Virus genome (UHGV): UHGV-0176277
Source of the DNA: a virus
Length of the DNA stretch: 11,027 nt
Strand: one strand, 5' to 3'
Part shown: piece by piece, positions 1-5,958 of the stretch
Layout of the letters: each line of letters opens with the position of its first letter
How positions within the stretch are numbered: the stretch's first letter is position 1
Program-made: the position numbers and the translations under genes
The notes under the pieces: model-generated
What the model was told of the DNA's origin: nothing
The model's database searches: none
The model's input: the letters and a program-made list of their open reading frames with translations, nothing else

Positions 1-49
1 TTTGCCAGCAGTCCTTGTCGTGTGCTGGCGTATTTGATTTGATAGTCAT
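1..49 (-). CDS. Hypothetical nin-region protein, 5-prime fragment (N-terminus MTIKSNTPAHDKDCWQ...), continues beyond window start
   Basis: ATG at 49-47 overlaps the ninB stop (ATGA overlap, translational coupling); open to the window edge; GGAAGG-like SD inside the ninB 3-prime end. Confidence 0.4.
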   Translation of the reverse strand, partial: MTIKSNTPAHDKDCWQ

Positions 50-492
50 GCAGCCTTCCCTTTTCGTTGTGACCATTCATACTCTCGCCGGGAGTCATCA
101 CTCCACCGCACGTTGCGCTCTGAGCCGAACCAGAACATGATTTCGATAAGCTCAGTCATGCTGGCCTTTCGCATTTTGCTGGTACGCACGCCAAGCATGA
201 CAACGCCACCGTCGATACCAGGCACACTTCGTTGCTCCAGTTTTTTGGTCTTAAGCCACAGGGCAGTGAACAGGTCTTTCCAGTCTTCCGGCGCCAGCCG
301 TTGACCATGCCATAGCACCTGACGCGAAACATCGTTCAGCATCGGCCACATACGGTCATTCTGCGCTTTGCTGCGTTTGGGTTCTCTAACGTGGACTTCG
401 TGAGGTGACTTGTCGTCGATCGGAAGTGAGAGTATTGCGTCTATGGCGTTGTTTCTGATTGCTTCGTTGCGAAGCATGTATATTTGCTTCAT
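46..492 (-). CDS. ninB: NinB-family recombination protein (lambda NinB/Orf-like)
   Basis: 148-aa translation contains the NinB-type block ...QNDRMWPMLNDVSRQVLWHGQRL...WKDLF... and C-terminal RNVRWSDD...EWSQRKG; position downstream of the replication genes as in lambda; ATG with GAGG SD 5 nt upstream. Confidence 0.8.
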   Translation of the reverse strand: MKQIYMLRNEAIRNNAIDAILSLPIDDKSPHEVHVREPKRSKAQNDRMWPMLNDVSRQVLWHGQRLAPEDWKDLFTALWLKTKKLEQRSVPGIDGGVVMLGVRTSKMRKASMTELIEIMFWFGSERNVRWSDDSRREYEWSQRKGKAA

Positions 493-494
493 CG

Positions 495-701
495 TTACCT
501 CAACTCACAAAACGCCACTTTTGCTACGACAACAGGCATAACACCGATAATCACCCACAGGAAAATGCTACCGAAAAGCACACCCACCAGGTCTTTACCT
601 TCGCCTACCAACCGGACAAAACTGCTGGCAACCACAATGAATGTCGCCACCATCCACATAGCACCGAGAATCCTCAATGCAGAGAAAATTAACTCAGCCA
701 C
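495..701 (-). CDS. Small hydrophobic membrane protein (68 aa, two predicted TM helices), unknown function, at the position lambda uses for ren
   Basis: GTG start with GGGGAGAG SD about 8 nt upstream; translation MAELIFSALRILGAMWMVATFIVVASSF...IFLWVIIGVMPVVVAKVAF is almost entirely hydrophobic; stop lies 2 nt before the ninB start. Confidence 0.5.
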   Translation of the reverse strand: MAELIFSALRILGAMWMVATFIVVASSFVRLVGEGKDLVGVLFGSIFLWVIIGVMPVVVAKVAFCELR

Positions 702-715
702 GATTTACTCTCCCC

Positions 716-748
716 CAAATAAAAAGGCCTGCGATTACCAGCAGGCCT
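716..748 (-). terminator. Rho-independent terminator downstream of the helicase gene (tR2-like position)
   Basis: On the minus strand AGGCCTGC-TGGTAATC-GCAGGCCT (8-bp GC-rich stem) is followed by TTTTTATTT; it sits between the helicase stop (777) and the small membrane ORF. Confidence 0.7.
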
Positions 749-776
749 GTTATTAGCTCAGTGATGTAGATGGTCA

Positions 777-2213
777 TCAGAATCCTCCTTTCTTCTTGGA
801 CTGCGGTTCCTCGCGTTCACGTCGGCGCATTTCAGCAGACTGTTGGTCTGTGTCATAAATAGCGCCATTTGCCTGAATGCAATACACCGTACCGGTATTG
901 CCATGACGATTGAGACGAAGGATTAGTTCGGTTTCACCAGGTGGAACACTGTCACCAAAAGCGCCTTCACGATGGATCCCAACCCAATAATCGCAATCCT
1001 GTTCAATCTGCCCTGTATCTCGTGAGTCACTTGGTAATGGGCGTTTATTGGTTCGGCTTTCCAGTGCGCGGTTAAGCTGCGTCAGAAGCACAACAACGCA
1101 ATCAAGCTCTTTGGCAAGGTTCTTCAGTCCTTTGGTGATCATGCCGTAAGCAAGGTCGTTGCGATCGGCCTTCTCAGCGGTCATTAGTGTCAGGTAATCG
1201 ACCAGAATCATGCCAACACATCCTTTTTCTCGCTTGATTCGACGGCTTTCGCTGACGATTTGAGCCAGAGATAATCCCGGCGTGTCGTCGATGTAAAGCA
1301 GGTCGATTTCACTCAAGCGATTGGCTGTTTCGATCGCCCTGTTGAAGTCACCATCGTAATCACCCTGATAGCCGTCATCAGCGTCATTTGTCGCCGGAAG
1401 GTAAAAAATATTCGGGTTAACACCAGACTTCTGCCCTACCAGTTTTTCCAGTATCTGGTCACCTGGCATTTCAAGGCTGAACATAAGAGCGGGCTTTTTC
1501 TCATGCACTGCGCAGTTGATTGCCATCTGGCTGTATAGCGTCGTTTTCCCCATCTTAGGGCGAGCACCAATGACAAACAGAGAGCCTTTCACCAGACCTT
1601 TCGGTGACAGCATCCTGTCCAGCGATGGGATCCCTGTGCTCATTCCTCGTTGTTCGCCTGATGGGTCAAATCGCTTCTCAAGGTCGCTAACCCAGTCTTC
1701 CATGACCTCGCCAAATGAGCGAAGGCCGCGACGCGATCCGGTTTTTGCATGGTCTGTCAGTTGCGTGAAAATCGCCTGAATAGCTTCGTACTTCTGCGTT
1801 GCAGTCATTCCGTTGCGGGAATAGAGCAATTCCGTCGCTTCAGTCATGCGGTTGATGGCGTAGCGTTCCATTGCGGTTTCGCGAACCTGCATTGCATAGG
1901 CAACGATGTTTGCGGCGCTCGGCGTGTTCTTTGCGATCTCAGAGATATAAGCAAAACCGCCAACAGACGCCGTTAACGATTTACGCTCCAGTTCATCGAA
2001 AAGCGTCAGGCCATCTACTGGCTTTTGCTCCCGGTGCATTCTGGTTATTTCTTCGAAAAGGATTTTGTGTGGTCGGCTGTAAAATGAATCAGGCTTCAGC
2101 ATCGCCAGAACTTTCTGGACGCGCTCACTGCTGTCATCATCCAGAAGCAATCCACCAATCACCGCCTGCTCTGCCTCGATGCTATGTGGCGGCGCATAAA
2201 AATTATCGGTCAT
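777..2213 (-). CDS. Replicative DNA helicase, DnaB family (phage P22 gp12-like)
   Basis: N-terminus MTDNFYAPPHSIEAEQAVIGGLLLD matches the DnaB N-terminal signature; Walker A GARPKMGKTT; start ATG at 2213 with GAGGGTGA SD, overlapping the upstream O-like gene end (2203). The track's longer ORF (to 2267) has no support for the extra 18 codons. Confidence 0.9.
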   Translation of the reverse strand: MTDNFYAPPHSIEAEQAVIGGLLLDDDSSERVQKVLAMLKPDSFYSRPHKILFEEITRMHREQKPVDGLTLFDELERKSLTASVGGFAYISEIAKNTPSAANIVAYAMQVRETAMERYAINRMTEATELLYSRNGMTATQKYEAIQAIFTQLTDHAKTGSRRGLRSFGEVMEDWVSDLEKRFDPSGEQRGMSTGIPSLDRMLSPKGLVKGSLFVIGARPKMGKTTLYSQMAINCAVHEKKPALMFSLEMPGDQILEKLVGQKSGVNPNIFYLPATNDADDGYQGDYDGDFNRAIETANRLSEIDLLYIDDTPGLSLAQIVSESRRIKREKGCVGMILVDYLTLMTAEKADRNDLAYGMITKGLKNLAKELDCVVVLLTQLNRALESRTNKRPLPSDSRDTGQIEQDCDYWVGIHREGAFGDSVPPGETELILRLNRHGNTGTVYCIQANGAIYDTDQQSAEMRRREREEPQSKKKGGF

Positions 2214-3093
2214 CGTGTTCACCCTCACGAACTTTAAGGTAGGTATTGTCGTTAAGCAGGAAATCAAATCCCTTTTTGTGCCAGACGGTTCCGCGTTGAT
2301 GGTTTGGGCGTTCTTCGAACATCCATCGGCAATTTTCGCCTACGTAGCTCAAATAATTTCTCCAGTCCTGCATCGTGAAACCATGCCCGTCAAGCTGGCG
2401 GGTTATCACTCCGGCTTTGCGCCAGAACGTTCGGATCTGGTTTTTACGCTTGTCATTCAGTGCGCGGATTCTTGGCGCTTCAGGAAGGATTTCGTGGTAA
2501 GCATCGACAACATCCTGACAGCTAACGGAAGGTTTTTTCTTGTCAGACTTTTTGTCTGCTGTGGCACTCTCTAATACGTCAGTATTAGAGATATTATTTA
2601 TATTATTGTTTATGGACAACCGTTGGACAACCGTTGGACAATCTCCGCTGAGAGCCGCGCCATCACTGGTGTTTGCGTTGGACAACCGTTGGACAACCGT
2701 TGGACAATTTTTTGCCTGAAAATCGTCATATTTAACGATTGTAAACAGGCTAAATTTCTTCCCCATCGAGCAAATATTAAGCATCCCTTTCGACTCAAAA
2801 GTCCGTAATAAGCTCCGAACTTTGTTGTCGGGGATGAATGTTTCTCTGACCAGCGACGGGCGTCCAGTTATCATCTGACCGCGATCAACAGTTATCGGAC
2901 CGATATCCGTATTGACGACAGTAGATTCGTGATTAGCCTTGAGGATTAAGTGAAGCCAAAGATGTACTGCCTGAGAGTCCTTATAGAGCCTGCTGTCCAT
3001 AAACTGGCGGTGTATAGAGACATACCCCATACTGGATGCCTCCTGATGTTGTACAGGGTTATGCCTGTAATCAGCTAACTTAACGACGCCCAT
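2203..3093 (-). CDS. Replication initiation protein (lambda O / P22 gp18 functional analogue) with the origin embedded in its coding sequence
   Basis: Lies between cII and the helicase; coding region contains phased direct repeats that translate as repeated CPTVVQRLS; ATG at 3093 has AGGAG 6 nt upstream; an alternative start at 3030 (MGYVSIH...) has AGGAGG 8 nt upstream, so the true N-terminus is uncertain. Confidence 0.7.
   Translation of the reverse strand: MGVVKLADYRHNPVQHQEASSMGYVSIHRQFMDSRLYKDSQAVHLWLHLILKANHESTVVNTDIGPITVDRGQMITGRPSLVRETFIPDNKVRSLLRTFESKGMLNICSMGKKFSLFTIVKYDDFQAKNCPTVVQRLSNANTSDGAALSGDCPTVVQRLSINNNINNISNTDVLESATADKKSDKKKPSVSCQDVVDAYHEILPEAPRIRALNDKRKNQIRTFWRKAGVITRQLDGHGFTMQDWRNYLSYVGENCRWMFEERPNHQRGTVWHKKGFDFLLNDNTYLKVREGEHDDR
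2614..2707. repeat. Origin iterons: six copies of an 11-bp direct repeat (GGACAACCGTT) in two triplets, flanked by an AT-rich tract
   Basis: GGACAA begins at 2614, 2625, 2636 and at 2680, 2691, 2702; all six are in 11-bp register with a 44-bp GC-rich spacer; AT-rich 2582-2612 (tattagagatattatttatattattgtttat) lies on the downstream side of the O-like reading frame, as in ori-lambda. Confidence 0.75.
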
Positions 3094-3618: not shown

Positions 3619-3626
3619 GTTGTATT

Positions 3627-3669
3627 CCCGCATTTCGGCGGGAATGAGGACCATGACTGTTAAAGAGCG
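3627..3669 (-). promoter_or_regulatory. nutR (boxA + boxB) N-utilisation site
   Basis: Minus-strand boxA CGCTCTTTAACA (plus 3658-3669) begins 7 nt after the cro stop; boxB hairpin CCCGC-CGAAAT-GCGGG (plus 3627-3642); the same boxA core and boxB recur at nutL (5299-5338). Confidence 0.75.
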
Positions 3670-3675
3670 GTGTTA

Positions 3676-3870
3676 CTATTTGTTTTTCTTGTTGCTTGGG
3701 AAAGGACGAACTTCCTCTCCAATCACACTGCCATCAGGCTTTACCGTAACCATAATGTTACGACCTGCCAGAATGGCCTTGCTGATAGCGCACTGGATTA
3801 CACCAAAGTCACTGGCTGCTTTAGCCTGTCCATGGATTTTGGCGTAATCGGCAAGTGTCATTCGAATCAT
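3676..3870 (-). CDS. cro: Cro repressor (64 aa)
   Basis: [62 protein letters not shown] aligns along its length with lambda Cro; ATG at 3870 with GGAG 7 nt upstream; divergent from cI. The track's GTG start at 3876 is a short extension. Confidence 0.85.
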
Positions 3871-3892
3871 ATGCACTCTCCGTTATTAACCA

Positions 3893-3976: not shown

Positions 3977-4693
3977 ATGGAAAATAAAAAATCACTGACG
4001 ACAGAACAGCTCGAAGACGCTAAGCGGCTTAAGGCTTTGTATGAGTCAAAAAAGAAAGAATTGGGAATAACCCAATACTCAATCGCTGATGAACTGGGTA
4101 TCACCCAAGGAGCGGTAGGGCATTATCTTAATGGCAGAAACGCGCTAAACGTTGAGGTTGCATCTGGTTTTGCACGGCTGTTGCAAGTCTCAATTGCTGA
4201 TTTTAGCCAGTCAATTGCTGCCAAGGTTGCAGAACAGGCAGAAAGCCTTAAGAGCGATGCCAACGTAAGGTATGCAGGGGAATACAGAGCAGGAAAGAGG
4301 TATCCGGTGTTAAGCAGTATCCAGGCTGGCTCGTGGTGTGAAGCATGCGAACCATACACCATTAAAGACATAGATGTTTGGCTTGAGTCTGACGCGCATA
4401 TTCAAGGTAATGCGTTCTGGCTTAAAGTGGAAGGTGATTCAATGACGGCACCGGTTGGGTTAAGCATTCCAGAGGGGACATTCGTTCTTTTCGATACCGG
4501 AAGGGAGGCGATCAACGGCAGCTTGGTCATAGCAAAACTTTCTGACTCTAACGAAGCAACATTCAAGAAGCTGATAATCGACGGCGGAAATAAATACCTC
4601 AAGGGACTTAATCCTGCATGGCCTCTCGTGCCAATCAATGGAAACTGCAAGATTATAGGCGTTGCAATTGAGACAAAACTAAGGCTGGTTTGA
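3977..4693 (+). CDS. cI: CI repressor (HTH N-terminal domain plus S24/LexA-type autocleaving C-terminal domain)
   Basis: N-terminus ...LTTEQLEDAKRLKALYESKKKELGITQYSIADELGITQGAVGHYLNGRNALN parallels lambda CI; Ala-Gly cleavage site in SIQAGSW; catalytic Ser in EGDSMTAP and Lys in TFKKLI. Confidence 0.95.
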   Translation: MENKKSLTTEQLEDAKRLKALYESKKKELGITQYSIADELGITQGAVGHYLNGRNALNVEVASGFARLLQVSIADFSQSIAAKVAEQAESLKSDANVRYAGEYRAGKRYPVLSSIQAGSWCEACEPYTIKDIDVWLESDAHIQGNAFWLKVEGDSMTAPVGLSIPEGTFVLFDTGREAINGSLVIAKLSDSNEATFKKLIIDGGNKYLKGLNPAWPLVPINGNCKIIGVAIETKLRLV

Positions 4694-4710
4694 TCACGCA
4701 AGGGGCGATT

Positions 4711-5079
4711 ATGGTTGGAACCGCTATAGCAAGCTTTTTTGGGATGTTGGCAATCTCGACAATTTACGGCTTAGCGCATGCTTTTATTGCGAAATCTCTA
4801 TCAGAAAAAATAAGCCAGGCTTGGGCGCATAGATCAGCTCGTTTCATGATTCTGGTGATCATAGCAATACAAGGGATATCTGCATTTATCCTCTATGGAT
4901 CAAGCTTATACCTATTGTATCAAGGCGCGACATTTACGCCTTACACCAGTGATTACGGAACTCTATACGATGGTAGTGAAGACATCACTGTGGCTTGGAT
5001 CGTCTTTGGTTTATCTATGGCCGTGTCTGTTGTAGCAGACATCATTAAGGTAATTCTCGTCTTAACCTTCGCTGACTAA
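4711..5079 (+). CDS. Integral membrane protein (122 aa, about three TM helices), unknown function, directly downstream of cI
   Basis: ATG at 4711 with AGGGG SD 5 nt upstream, 17 nt after the cI stop, same strand with no intervening promoter or terminator; hydrophobic segments VGTAIASFFGMLAISTIYGLAHAFIA, FMILVIIAIQGISAFILYGSSLYLLY, ITVAWIVFGLSMAVSVVADIIKVILVLTF. The track's TTG start at 4690 is less likely. Confidence 0.6.
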   Translation: MVGTAIASFFGMLAISTIYGLAHAFIAKSLSEKISQAWAHRSARFMILVIIAIQGISAFILYGSSLYLLYQGATFTPYTSDYGTLYDGSEDITVAWIVFGLSMAVSVVADIIKVILVLTFAD

Positions 5080-5339: not shown

Positions 5340-5652
5340 ACCAAAGAGTAGTTGGCTTTGGGGTGACGTGAAGTGCAGCTGCACGACGGCAACCGGAAGA
5401 TAAGCACCCGGCGCGTCACCGCCAAAGTCAATTCCATAGGCGTTATGCAGCCGCCACCATATTCAAGAAAGCTGCACAAGAGGTAGGAGGATTTATGTGA
5501 ATGCATAACTTCAAAACCGAGGTTAATTAAATCTCTCGATCCGAGCATCGACCTATTAGGTGGTGAGATGCTCTTTCTGCCCCTCAATTCGAGGGGCCAG
5601 AAACCACTTTGCAATCACTATCAATTCCAAAGTTGTTTCATCGGAGGTCAAC

Positions 5653-5958
5653 ATGACAGTAGTCATTACATATCTGGCTGACGATAACGCCAGAAATCGC
5701 CGCAGAGCACGCAGACAGGCTCAACGTGAACAGGCAATGCAAGAACAGCGACTGGCGCGAAAAATTGCGCTAAAGCTCTCTGGTTGCGTCAGAGCAGATA
5801 AAGCAGCATCACTCGGAAGCCTTCGCTGCAAGAAGGCAGAAGAAGTCGAGCGTAAACAGAATCGTATTTACTACCGCAAGCCACGCAGTGAAATGGGTGT
5901 GACTTGTGTTGGACGCCAGAAGCAACGCGGAAAATCAATTCCAGCTTATTACGATTGA
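5653..5958 (+). CDS. N: Antitermination protein N (101 aa)
   Basis: Arginine-rich motif NARNRRRARRQAQREQA near the N-terminus; C-terminus VERKQNRIYYRKPRSEMGVTCVGRQKQRGKSIP parallels lambda N; ATG with GGAGG SD 5 nt upstream. The track's ORF from 5560 is an upstream in-frame extension. Confidence 0.85.
   Translation: MTVVITYLADDNARNRRRARRQAQREQAMQEQRLARKIALKLSGCVRADKAASLGSLRCKKAEEVERKQNRIYYRKPRSEMGVTCVGRQKQRGKSIPAYYD

Follow-up and report, generated by a model that had tools for sequence, protein, structure and literature searches.

The stretch of DNA analysed here, referred to as the window, comprises 11,027 nucleotides of the UHGV virus genome UHGV-0176277, and every gene between its positions 1 and 3900 lies on the minus strand. 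Read along that strand, Cro (3876..3676) is followed by CII, an O-like initiator (3093..2203), a DnaB-like replicative helicase, a 27-codon ninA mini-ORF, the 68-codon ORF68 and NinB. Cro, CII and DnaB were assigned by Pfam and the O-like initiator by PHROGs. Between 2600 and 2710, matches to TGGACA...GACAAT are repeated 66 nt apart and the peptide CPTVVQRLS is repeated in the O-like protein, a pattern that would fit iterons of an origin within the O gene, as lambda has. The coordinates of the main features are collected in Table 1.

Table 1. Positions of the genes and signals surrounding ORF68 and of the antitermination components encoded in the window
Feature	Position	Strand	Details
ninB (Orf-family recombination mediator)	46..492	minus	Pfam NinB, E 1.7e-48; next gene downstream of ORF68
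ORF68	495..701	minus	68-codon GTG-start gene, PHROG 1165; predicted two-helix inner-membrane hairpin; start GTG 701-699, stop TAA 497-495
ninA mini-ORF	694..777	minus	27 codons; phrog_5907 match; contains the entire tR2 hairpin
Shine-Dalgarno of ORF68	708..716	minus	GGGGGAGAG; GGAG core 713-710, 8 nt 5' of the ORF68 GTG
Intrinsic terminator, lambda tR2	717..748	minus	stem 748-741/732-725, loop 740-733, U-tract TTTTATTT 724-717
DnaB-like replicative helicase	777..2213	minus	Pfam; gene preceding ninA in the chain
nutR-like site just after cro	3624..3669	minus	boxA CGCTCTTTA 3669-3661; boxB-like 8-bp hairpin 3645-3624
N-like antitermination protein	5650..5958	plus	phrog_271, E 1e-36; arginine-rich N-terminal motif

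ORF68 is embedded in a chain of coupled genes: the ATG of ninA overlaps the TGA of the helicase gene (TGATG), and the TGA of ninA overlaps the GTG of ORF68 (GTGGCTGA). The encoded protein has a GRAVY of 1.57, with a short polar loop between two hydrophobic segments. The first-pass annotation had described a 68-aa hydrophobic ORF with a GTG start and a good Shine-Dalgarno, placed immediately behind a strong terminator; all of these features are present on the minus strand, at correct coordinates, and the terminator consists of an 8-bp stem and a U-tract. The further remark that ORF68 ends 2 nt before ninB is true in the window and fails as a general feature, as the gap is peculiar to this copy.

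The ninA-tR2 segment and transcription of the operon

The terminator hairpin has a G+C-rich stem and an 8-nt loop, and folds with an energy of -16.1 kcal/mol (z = -2.65). Hairpin and U-tract together (AGGCCTGCTGGTAATCGCAGGCCTTTTTATTTGG) are base-for-base identical to lambda tR2, at 40.6 kb of lambda, and the whole interval from the ninA ATG to the ORF68 GTG of the window is essentially identical to lambda 40.57-40.64 kb. The position between the replication genes and ninB likewise matches the lambda context ren-ninA(tR2)-ninB, and the same hairpin is labelled tR2 in the HK620 record and a terminator in the HK75 record. The initial reading of the locus had missed three points, namely that the terminator is identical to lambda tR2, that it lies inside ninA and that the 2-nt gap to ninB is specific to this copy. 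In lambda, tR2 stops unmodified RNA polymerase and is overridden by N. Its maximal efficiency in vivo is ∼0.9, ribosomes close by repress termination and the start of NinA translation has been noted upstream of it (PMC4824070).

The 27-codon mini-ORF that encloses the hairpin encodes a hydrophobic product and is annotated as ninA in the HK620 and HK630 records. Its Shine-Dalgarno in the window is AGGAGG at 789-784, and a Shine-Dalgarno-like motif lies 6-9 nt 5' of the ninA ATG in all six upstream contexts that keep this ATG. The six contexts are unrelated to one another, and the recurrence of the motif suggests that ninA is translated; translation across the hairpin may in turn modulate termination at tR2. 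In a set of 87 related loci, the ∼85-nt piece consisting of ninA, tR2 and the Shine-Dalgarno is almost invariant. A diverged relative (L103) retains a NinA-like ORF and keeps the hairpin stem through a compensatory C-G to G-C change, and this preservation indicates that the terminator is under selection. Two further terminator-like hairpins are located on the plus strand at 437-486, antisense to the first ninB codons; terminator-like sites in the region number 5 in total, versus 3.0 ± 1.6 in shuffled sequence, and are thus not above expectation.

ORF68 lies in the rightward early operon, and its transcription is probably delayed-early. No promoter-like site was detected on either strand within 1-2600, the coding-strand stretch 700-2600 included, and no terminator was found downstream of ORF68 before ninB. 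The earlier proposal that expression depends on N-mediated read-through is a reasonable one, since the terminator is lambda tR2 and the window encodes both an N-like protein and a nutR-like site with boxA and boxB-like elements. In the proposed scheme, ORF68 would belong to a pR operon in the order cro, nutR, cII, O, helicase, ninA/tR2, ORF68 and ninB, and, having no promoter of its own, would be transcribed only by polymerases that pass tR2. These would be N-modified polymerases, supplemented by leakage or by read-through aided by ribosomes translating ninA. Because only polymerases beyond tR2 would reach it, ORF68 is expected to be off in a repressed lysogen and to be produced in lytic growth. 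Translation would start from the Shine-Dalgarno that follows tR2, and possibly also by coupling to the termination of ninA. Read-through-dependent, delayed-early expression of ORF68 is thus what we infer from the arrangement of the signals.

The ORF68 family and the slot behind tR2

ORF68 gives a full-length match to PHROG 1165 with an E-value of 3.8e-33, residues 1-65 aligning to profile positions 1-65 of 68. The related proteins form 189 clusters at 90%, all labelled 'hypothetical', from E. coli, Salmonella, E. albertii and E. marmotae. A tblastn search revealed relatives in 107 phage records that fall into two deep clades. The close clade, at 82-98% amino acid identity, includes the laboratory phages HK75, HK630, HK022 and mEp235, as well as Stx2 phage 86 and many Stx2a phages, and the second, at 39-56%, includes HK620, HK633, mEp213 and Salmonella P22-like phages. 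Clade-A copies are present in 451 of 5,426 complete E. coli genomes (∼8%), where they are always annotated as hypothetical. The carriers span several genera and virion types, namely P22-like Lederbergvirus, Lambdavirus and Stx phages. ORF68 is therefore already catalogued as a hypothetical protein in many genomes; it is an ordinary accessory gene.

Beyond these clades the family is small. A profile search of 1.84 billion representatives returned just 27 clusters, among them relatives of 60-66 aa from other Enterobacterales phages at 25-35% identity, and the two named distant relatives are from Pantoea and Izhakiella. On viral contigs, distant relatives occupy the first slots, or lie a few genes, after a DnaB-like helicase; a NinB-like gene is located downstream in most of these loci and the starts often overlap the upstream stop. 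Most distant relatives lack an upstream terminator, so that dependence on read-through appears limited to the E. coli and Salmonella versions. Further small hydrophobic ORFs adjoin distant relatives in three loci (L094 2783-3004, L096 3385-3666 and L098 3229-3498), and this end of the replication module may harbor clustered small membrane proteins.

Two other observations concern the distribution and history of the family. A species-level genome scan yielded five loci, three of which (L009, L011 and L012) come from bins labelled Cellvibrionaceae, Bacillota and Collinsella; all three are short contigs whose copies are 82-98% identical to the E. coli phage gene, and they are probably mis-binned phage contigs that give no evidence of a wider host range. 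One protein (P0147) combines an N-terminal half of the E. coli clade with a C-terminal half of the HK620/Salmonella clade, switching at the GKD loop, and by its sequence is an intragenic recombinant of the two clades. Literature searches covering ninA and tR2, nin-region small membrane proteins, Stx prophages studied by ribosome profiling and the PHROG identifier yielded no study of the ORF68 protein or its family; articles dealing with phage L, epsilon34 and P22 deletions refer to ninA alone or to the nin region in broad terms.

The sequences on either side of the ninA-tR2 segment vary widely. The 87 loci display at least seven upstream contexts, which include the 3' end of ren, the 3' ends of helicase genes and an Emek orf74D-type gene. 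In most contexts the upstream join falls exactly at the ninA ATG, with unrelated sequences beyond it; in one context (L010/L022), which lacks the ninA start, the join is at the hairpin itself. Downstream, at least four different genes are present behind tR2. The slot is occupied by ninB in lambda and by an unrelated 92-aa protein in Sakai Sp5 and in 933W. The latter two, examined for a link to EHEC translatome data, do not contain ORF68, and the unrelated gene they carry at this position indicates that the slot behind tR2 holds alternative cargo genes. The joint between tR2 and the Shine-Dalgarno looks like a recombination boundary for alternative cargo.

The same loci bear on the idea, raised in the first-pass annotation, that ORF68 stands at the ren position in place of ren. 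The 3' end of ren lies upstream of ninA/tR2 and ORF68 in ∼19 of the 87 related loci, and in phage H-19B the order is P, ren, ninA/tR2 and the ORF68 homologue. Ren is thus encoded upstream of the terminator and ORF68 downstream of it. No match between ORF68 and Ren was found in Pfam, NCBIfam or PHROG. The interpretation of ORF68 as a replacement for ren was rejected on account of their co-occurrence.

Coding status, predicted fold and rival readings of ORF68

The first-pass annotation had proposed that the ORF be judged by its conservation and Ka/Ks ratio across related prophages. The frame is conserved across relatives: among 41 distinct DNA versions drawn from both deep clades, the sense frame is open in all 41 and is the sole frame of which this is true. 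All intact copies consist of 68 codons, and none has an indel even where nucleotide identity falls to 52-62%. GTG is the start codon in 39 of the 41 and ATG in the Salmonella clade. Between the clades, dN/dS ranges from 0.26 to 0.45 (NG86), and the excess of synonymous over non-synonymous change is significant in two pairs (Fisher p = 0.004 and 8e-5). Within the close clade, where 20 synonymous and 36 non-synonymous variant types were counted, purifying selection on ORF68 appears only moderate. We conclude with high confidence, on comparative grounds, that ORF68 is a genuine protein-coding gene.

The copy in the window is an unusual allele of this gene. Relative to HK75 and to the closest genome, which is 98.6% identical over 3.2 kb, it is 5 nt shorter near 513-518, where one copy of GTGGC|GTGGC has been deleted. 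The deletion rewrites the last five residues from ...AKVAWRFVS* to ...AKVAFCELR*, removing the near-invariant W64, and shifts the stop from 7 to 2 nt before ninB; most relatives followed by a ninB-type gene have the 7-nt spacing. The allele is rare, with only two of the 451 genome matches being ≥99% identical, yet one protein cluster of 42 members has it. Judging from the loss of W64, the function of the window allele may be impaired. In H-19B and in a Stx1a-converting phage, a GGA to TGA change introduces a nonsense codon at position 15; the H-19B homologue (L006 698-904, stop at ∼740-742) is unannotated and lies downstream of ren and tR2. Truncated forms are also present among the relatives. 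The circulation of nonsense and frameshift alleles, the C-terminal frameshift of the window included, argues that ORF68 is dispensable, and the comparisons as a whole clearly point to a dispensable gene that is freely exchanged between phages.

The predicted structure is a simple helical hairpin. An AlphaFold model built with the family alignment places helices at residues 2-33 and 38-67, with a mean pLDDT of 84.6. Across the family, W16 and P56 are invariant, W49, G53, K61 and W64 are kept in at least 90% of members, position 10 is often basic and a G-x-D-P turn is frequent. The window copy has K10, W16, the G-x-D-P loop, W49, G53, P56 and K61, and lacks W64. The helices contain almost no polar residues, basic residues are located at the outer ends of both and the turn harbors a conserved acidic residue. 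Topology prediction is based on the positive-inside rule, which, applied to the flanking basic residues, predicts an N-in/C-in orientation with a very short periplasmic loop. On the strength of this model, we infer an inner-membrane location and N-in/C-in topology for ORF68.

A sceptical account of these data is that ORF68 is a non-functional frame, either a by-product of a hydrophobic-looking spacer or of a DNA or RNA element near tR2, or a decaying pseudogene copy. Two antisense frames are indeed often open as well (17 of 41 and 37 of 41), nonsense and frameshift alleles occur, the window copy is without the conserved C-terminus and the ORF was not called in the HK620 and H-19B annotations. 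These points are outweighed by the sense frame being the only one open in every version of both deep clades, by the constant length at 52% nucleotide identity with dN/dS below 1, and by relatives at 25-30% identity that retain the hydrophobic pattern, the motifs and the genomic position; no Rfam family matches either, and the account is very improbable. A membrane-damaging toxin or holin-like protein, which would oligomerise in the inner membrane and depolarise or permeabilise it, with a part in host shut-off or in the timing of lysis, would be in keeping with a small, very hydrophobic protein of two helices, and the close clade also has a GxxxG-like motif, G40-G44. A parallel is offered by the class II holins, such as the S68 pinholin of phage 21, which resemble ORF68 in size, in their two hydrophobic helices and in the predicted N-in/C-in topology. 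In contrast, class II holin genes sit beside the endolysin gene in the late-operon lysis cassette, and their products have a charged cytoplasmic C-terminal tail, whereas ORF68 lies in the early operon between helicase and NinB genes, beside the replication and recombination functions, and has only ∼7 residues after helix 2, one or two of them basic. The dual-start motif of pinholins is not present in ORF68, and the near absence of polar residues from its helices also speaks against a pore. No holin or toxin family was matched in Pfam, where the best hit was YgaP-like_TM with an E-value of 0.87, far below threshold. A type I toxin organisation of the Hok, Ldr or TisB type was rejected, since the promoter-like site and antisense transcription unit expected of such a toxin are missing and Rfam gave no match; the cognate antisense RNA for which a search had been suggested at the outset did not emerge. 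Overall, we consider a toxin or holin improbable.

The same predicted location would suit a superinfection-exclusion or defence factor that acts at the inner membrane by blocking DNA entry of other phages. It would work either in lytic growth, as T4 Imm does, or from the prophage, as P22 SieA and HK97 gp15 do. In keeping with this role, ORF68 encodes a predicted inner-membrane protein of temperate phages, has the patchy distribution of accessory cargo and moves as a mosaic module. It is however located behind tR2 in the repressed pR operon, without a promoter-like site, and would for this reason not be expressed in the lysogen, the usual setting for exclusion genes. Carriage by several genera and virion types is also not what an entry block specific to one pathway would predict. 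PADLOC returned no match for ORF68, NinA or two relatives, and searches of ORF68 against NCBIfam and PDB profiles were without match; Foldseek comparison of the AlphaFold model with PDB and BFVD retrieved only generic helical hairpins, all with E > 1, and at gathering thresholds no Rfam family was found anywhere in the window. Suggestions of a toxin, holin or exclusion factor thus find no support from homology in Pfam, NCBIfam, PADLOC, PDB or Foldseek, and exclusion carries the same small probability as the toxin or holin. A moron was rejected as well, because the terminator is upstream of ORF68, none follows it ahead of ninB and no promoter-like site was seen.

Another hydrophobic protein in the window touches on exclusion. 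At 4690-5079 (plus), the place of rexA/rexB in lambda, a TTG start that overlaps the end of cI opens a frame for a 129-aa protein (phrog_6534) that apparently spans the membrane several times. Placed for expression in the lysogen, it would be a better exclusion candidate than ORF68.

Proposed role and comparison with known systems

The best overall explanation, which we hold to be probable, is that ORF68 is an accessory gene of PHROG 1165 in a nin-region slot, expressed by read-through and encoding a predicted membrane hairpin. The product would be a two-helix inner-membrane hairpin with both ends in the cytoplasm, given the conserved K/R10 and K61, and a periplasmic turn of ∼6 residues carrying the conserved G-K-D(-P) motif. 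It would act in lytic development as a small modulator or inhibitor through specific helix-helix binding to an inner-membrane protein of the host or phage. The pattern of small and aromatic residues (G13, W16, W49, G53, P56, K61 and W64) is kept down to 25-30% identity, and such position-specific conservation of Gly, Pro, Trp and Lys, together with the scarcity of polar residues in the helices, favours binding. A pore, holin or depolarising toxin is ranked as less likely than a binding modulator. Provided that the gene is functional, specific helix-helix binding in place of a pore is put forward as a tentative suggestion. It is offered with low confidence, and many small hydrophobic proteins are toxic without a specific partner.

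A more ambitious extension, which we regard as doubtful, is that PHROG 1165 represents an unrecognised class of delayed-early two-helix effectors that bind a specific host inner-membrane protein, with ninA serving as a translation-sensitive valve. If this were true, such effectors would be kept beside the helicase gene in lambdoid phages of Enterobacterales, and a protease, a transporter or a component of DNA entry would be the candidate targets. In lytic growth they would tune replication, exclusion or the choice between lysis and lysogeny, and the ninA valve would set the output of both the effector and the remainder of the nin region.

No result of the analysis points to a new kind of system, and the main value of the analysis is in annotation hygiene: the terminator is lambda tR2, and ORF68 is a genuine gene and not a substitute for ren. 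PHROG 1165 is common in many lambda-like, P22-like and Stx phages, and older records, such as those of HK620 and H-19B, leave a genuine ORF68 unannotated. Were ORF68 to modulate a host membrane protein in lytic growth, this would give the poorly understood nin region a further function.

The arrangement around ninA in the window is that of the nin region in lambda, P22 and HK620, with the same overlapping stop and start codons. In lambda, the ren stop overlaps the ninA ATG, the ninA stop overlaps the ninB ATG directly and the Shine-Dalgarno element found here before ORF68 serves ninB. In contrast, the window has ORF68 inserted between ninA and ninB, and a DnaB-type helicase upstream instead of ren. 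Lambda ren resembles ORF68 in being non-essential and in lying between the replication genes and ninB; Ren differs in being a 96-aa protein encoded upstream of tR2 with no sequence similarity to ORF68, which is a predicted membrane hairpin encoded downstream. The occupants of the same slot directly behind tR2 in Sp5 (ECs_1192, L105 9316-9594) and 933W (ST933Wp31, L106 5551-5829) are non-hydrophobic as well as unrelated to ORF68, while ECs_1192 has a GTG start and the same kind of Shine-Dalgarno. The closest counterparts are members of PHROG 1165 itself: HK75 gp43 (ADO67670), HK630_052 and orf70 of Stx2-converting phage 86, like ORF68, have 68 codons and lie behind ninA/tR2, and so do orf68 of Salmonella phage Emek and SPN9CC_0027. 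The window copy is distinguished from these members by its C-terminus, where FCELR replaces WRFVS.
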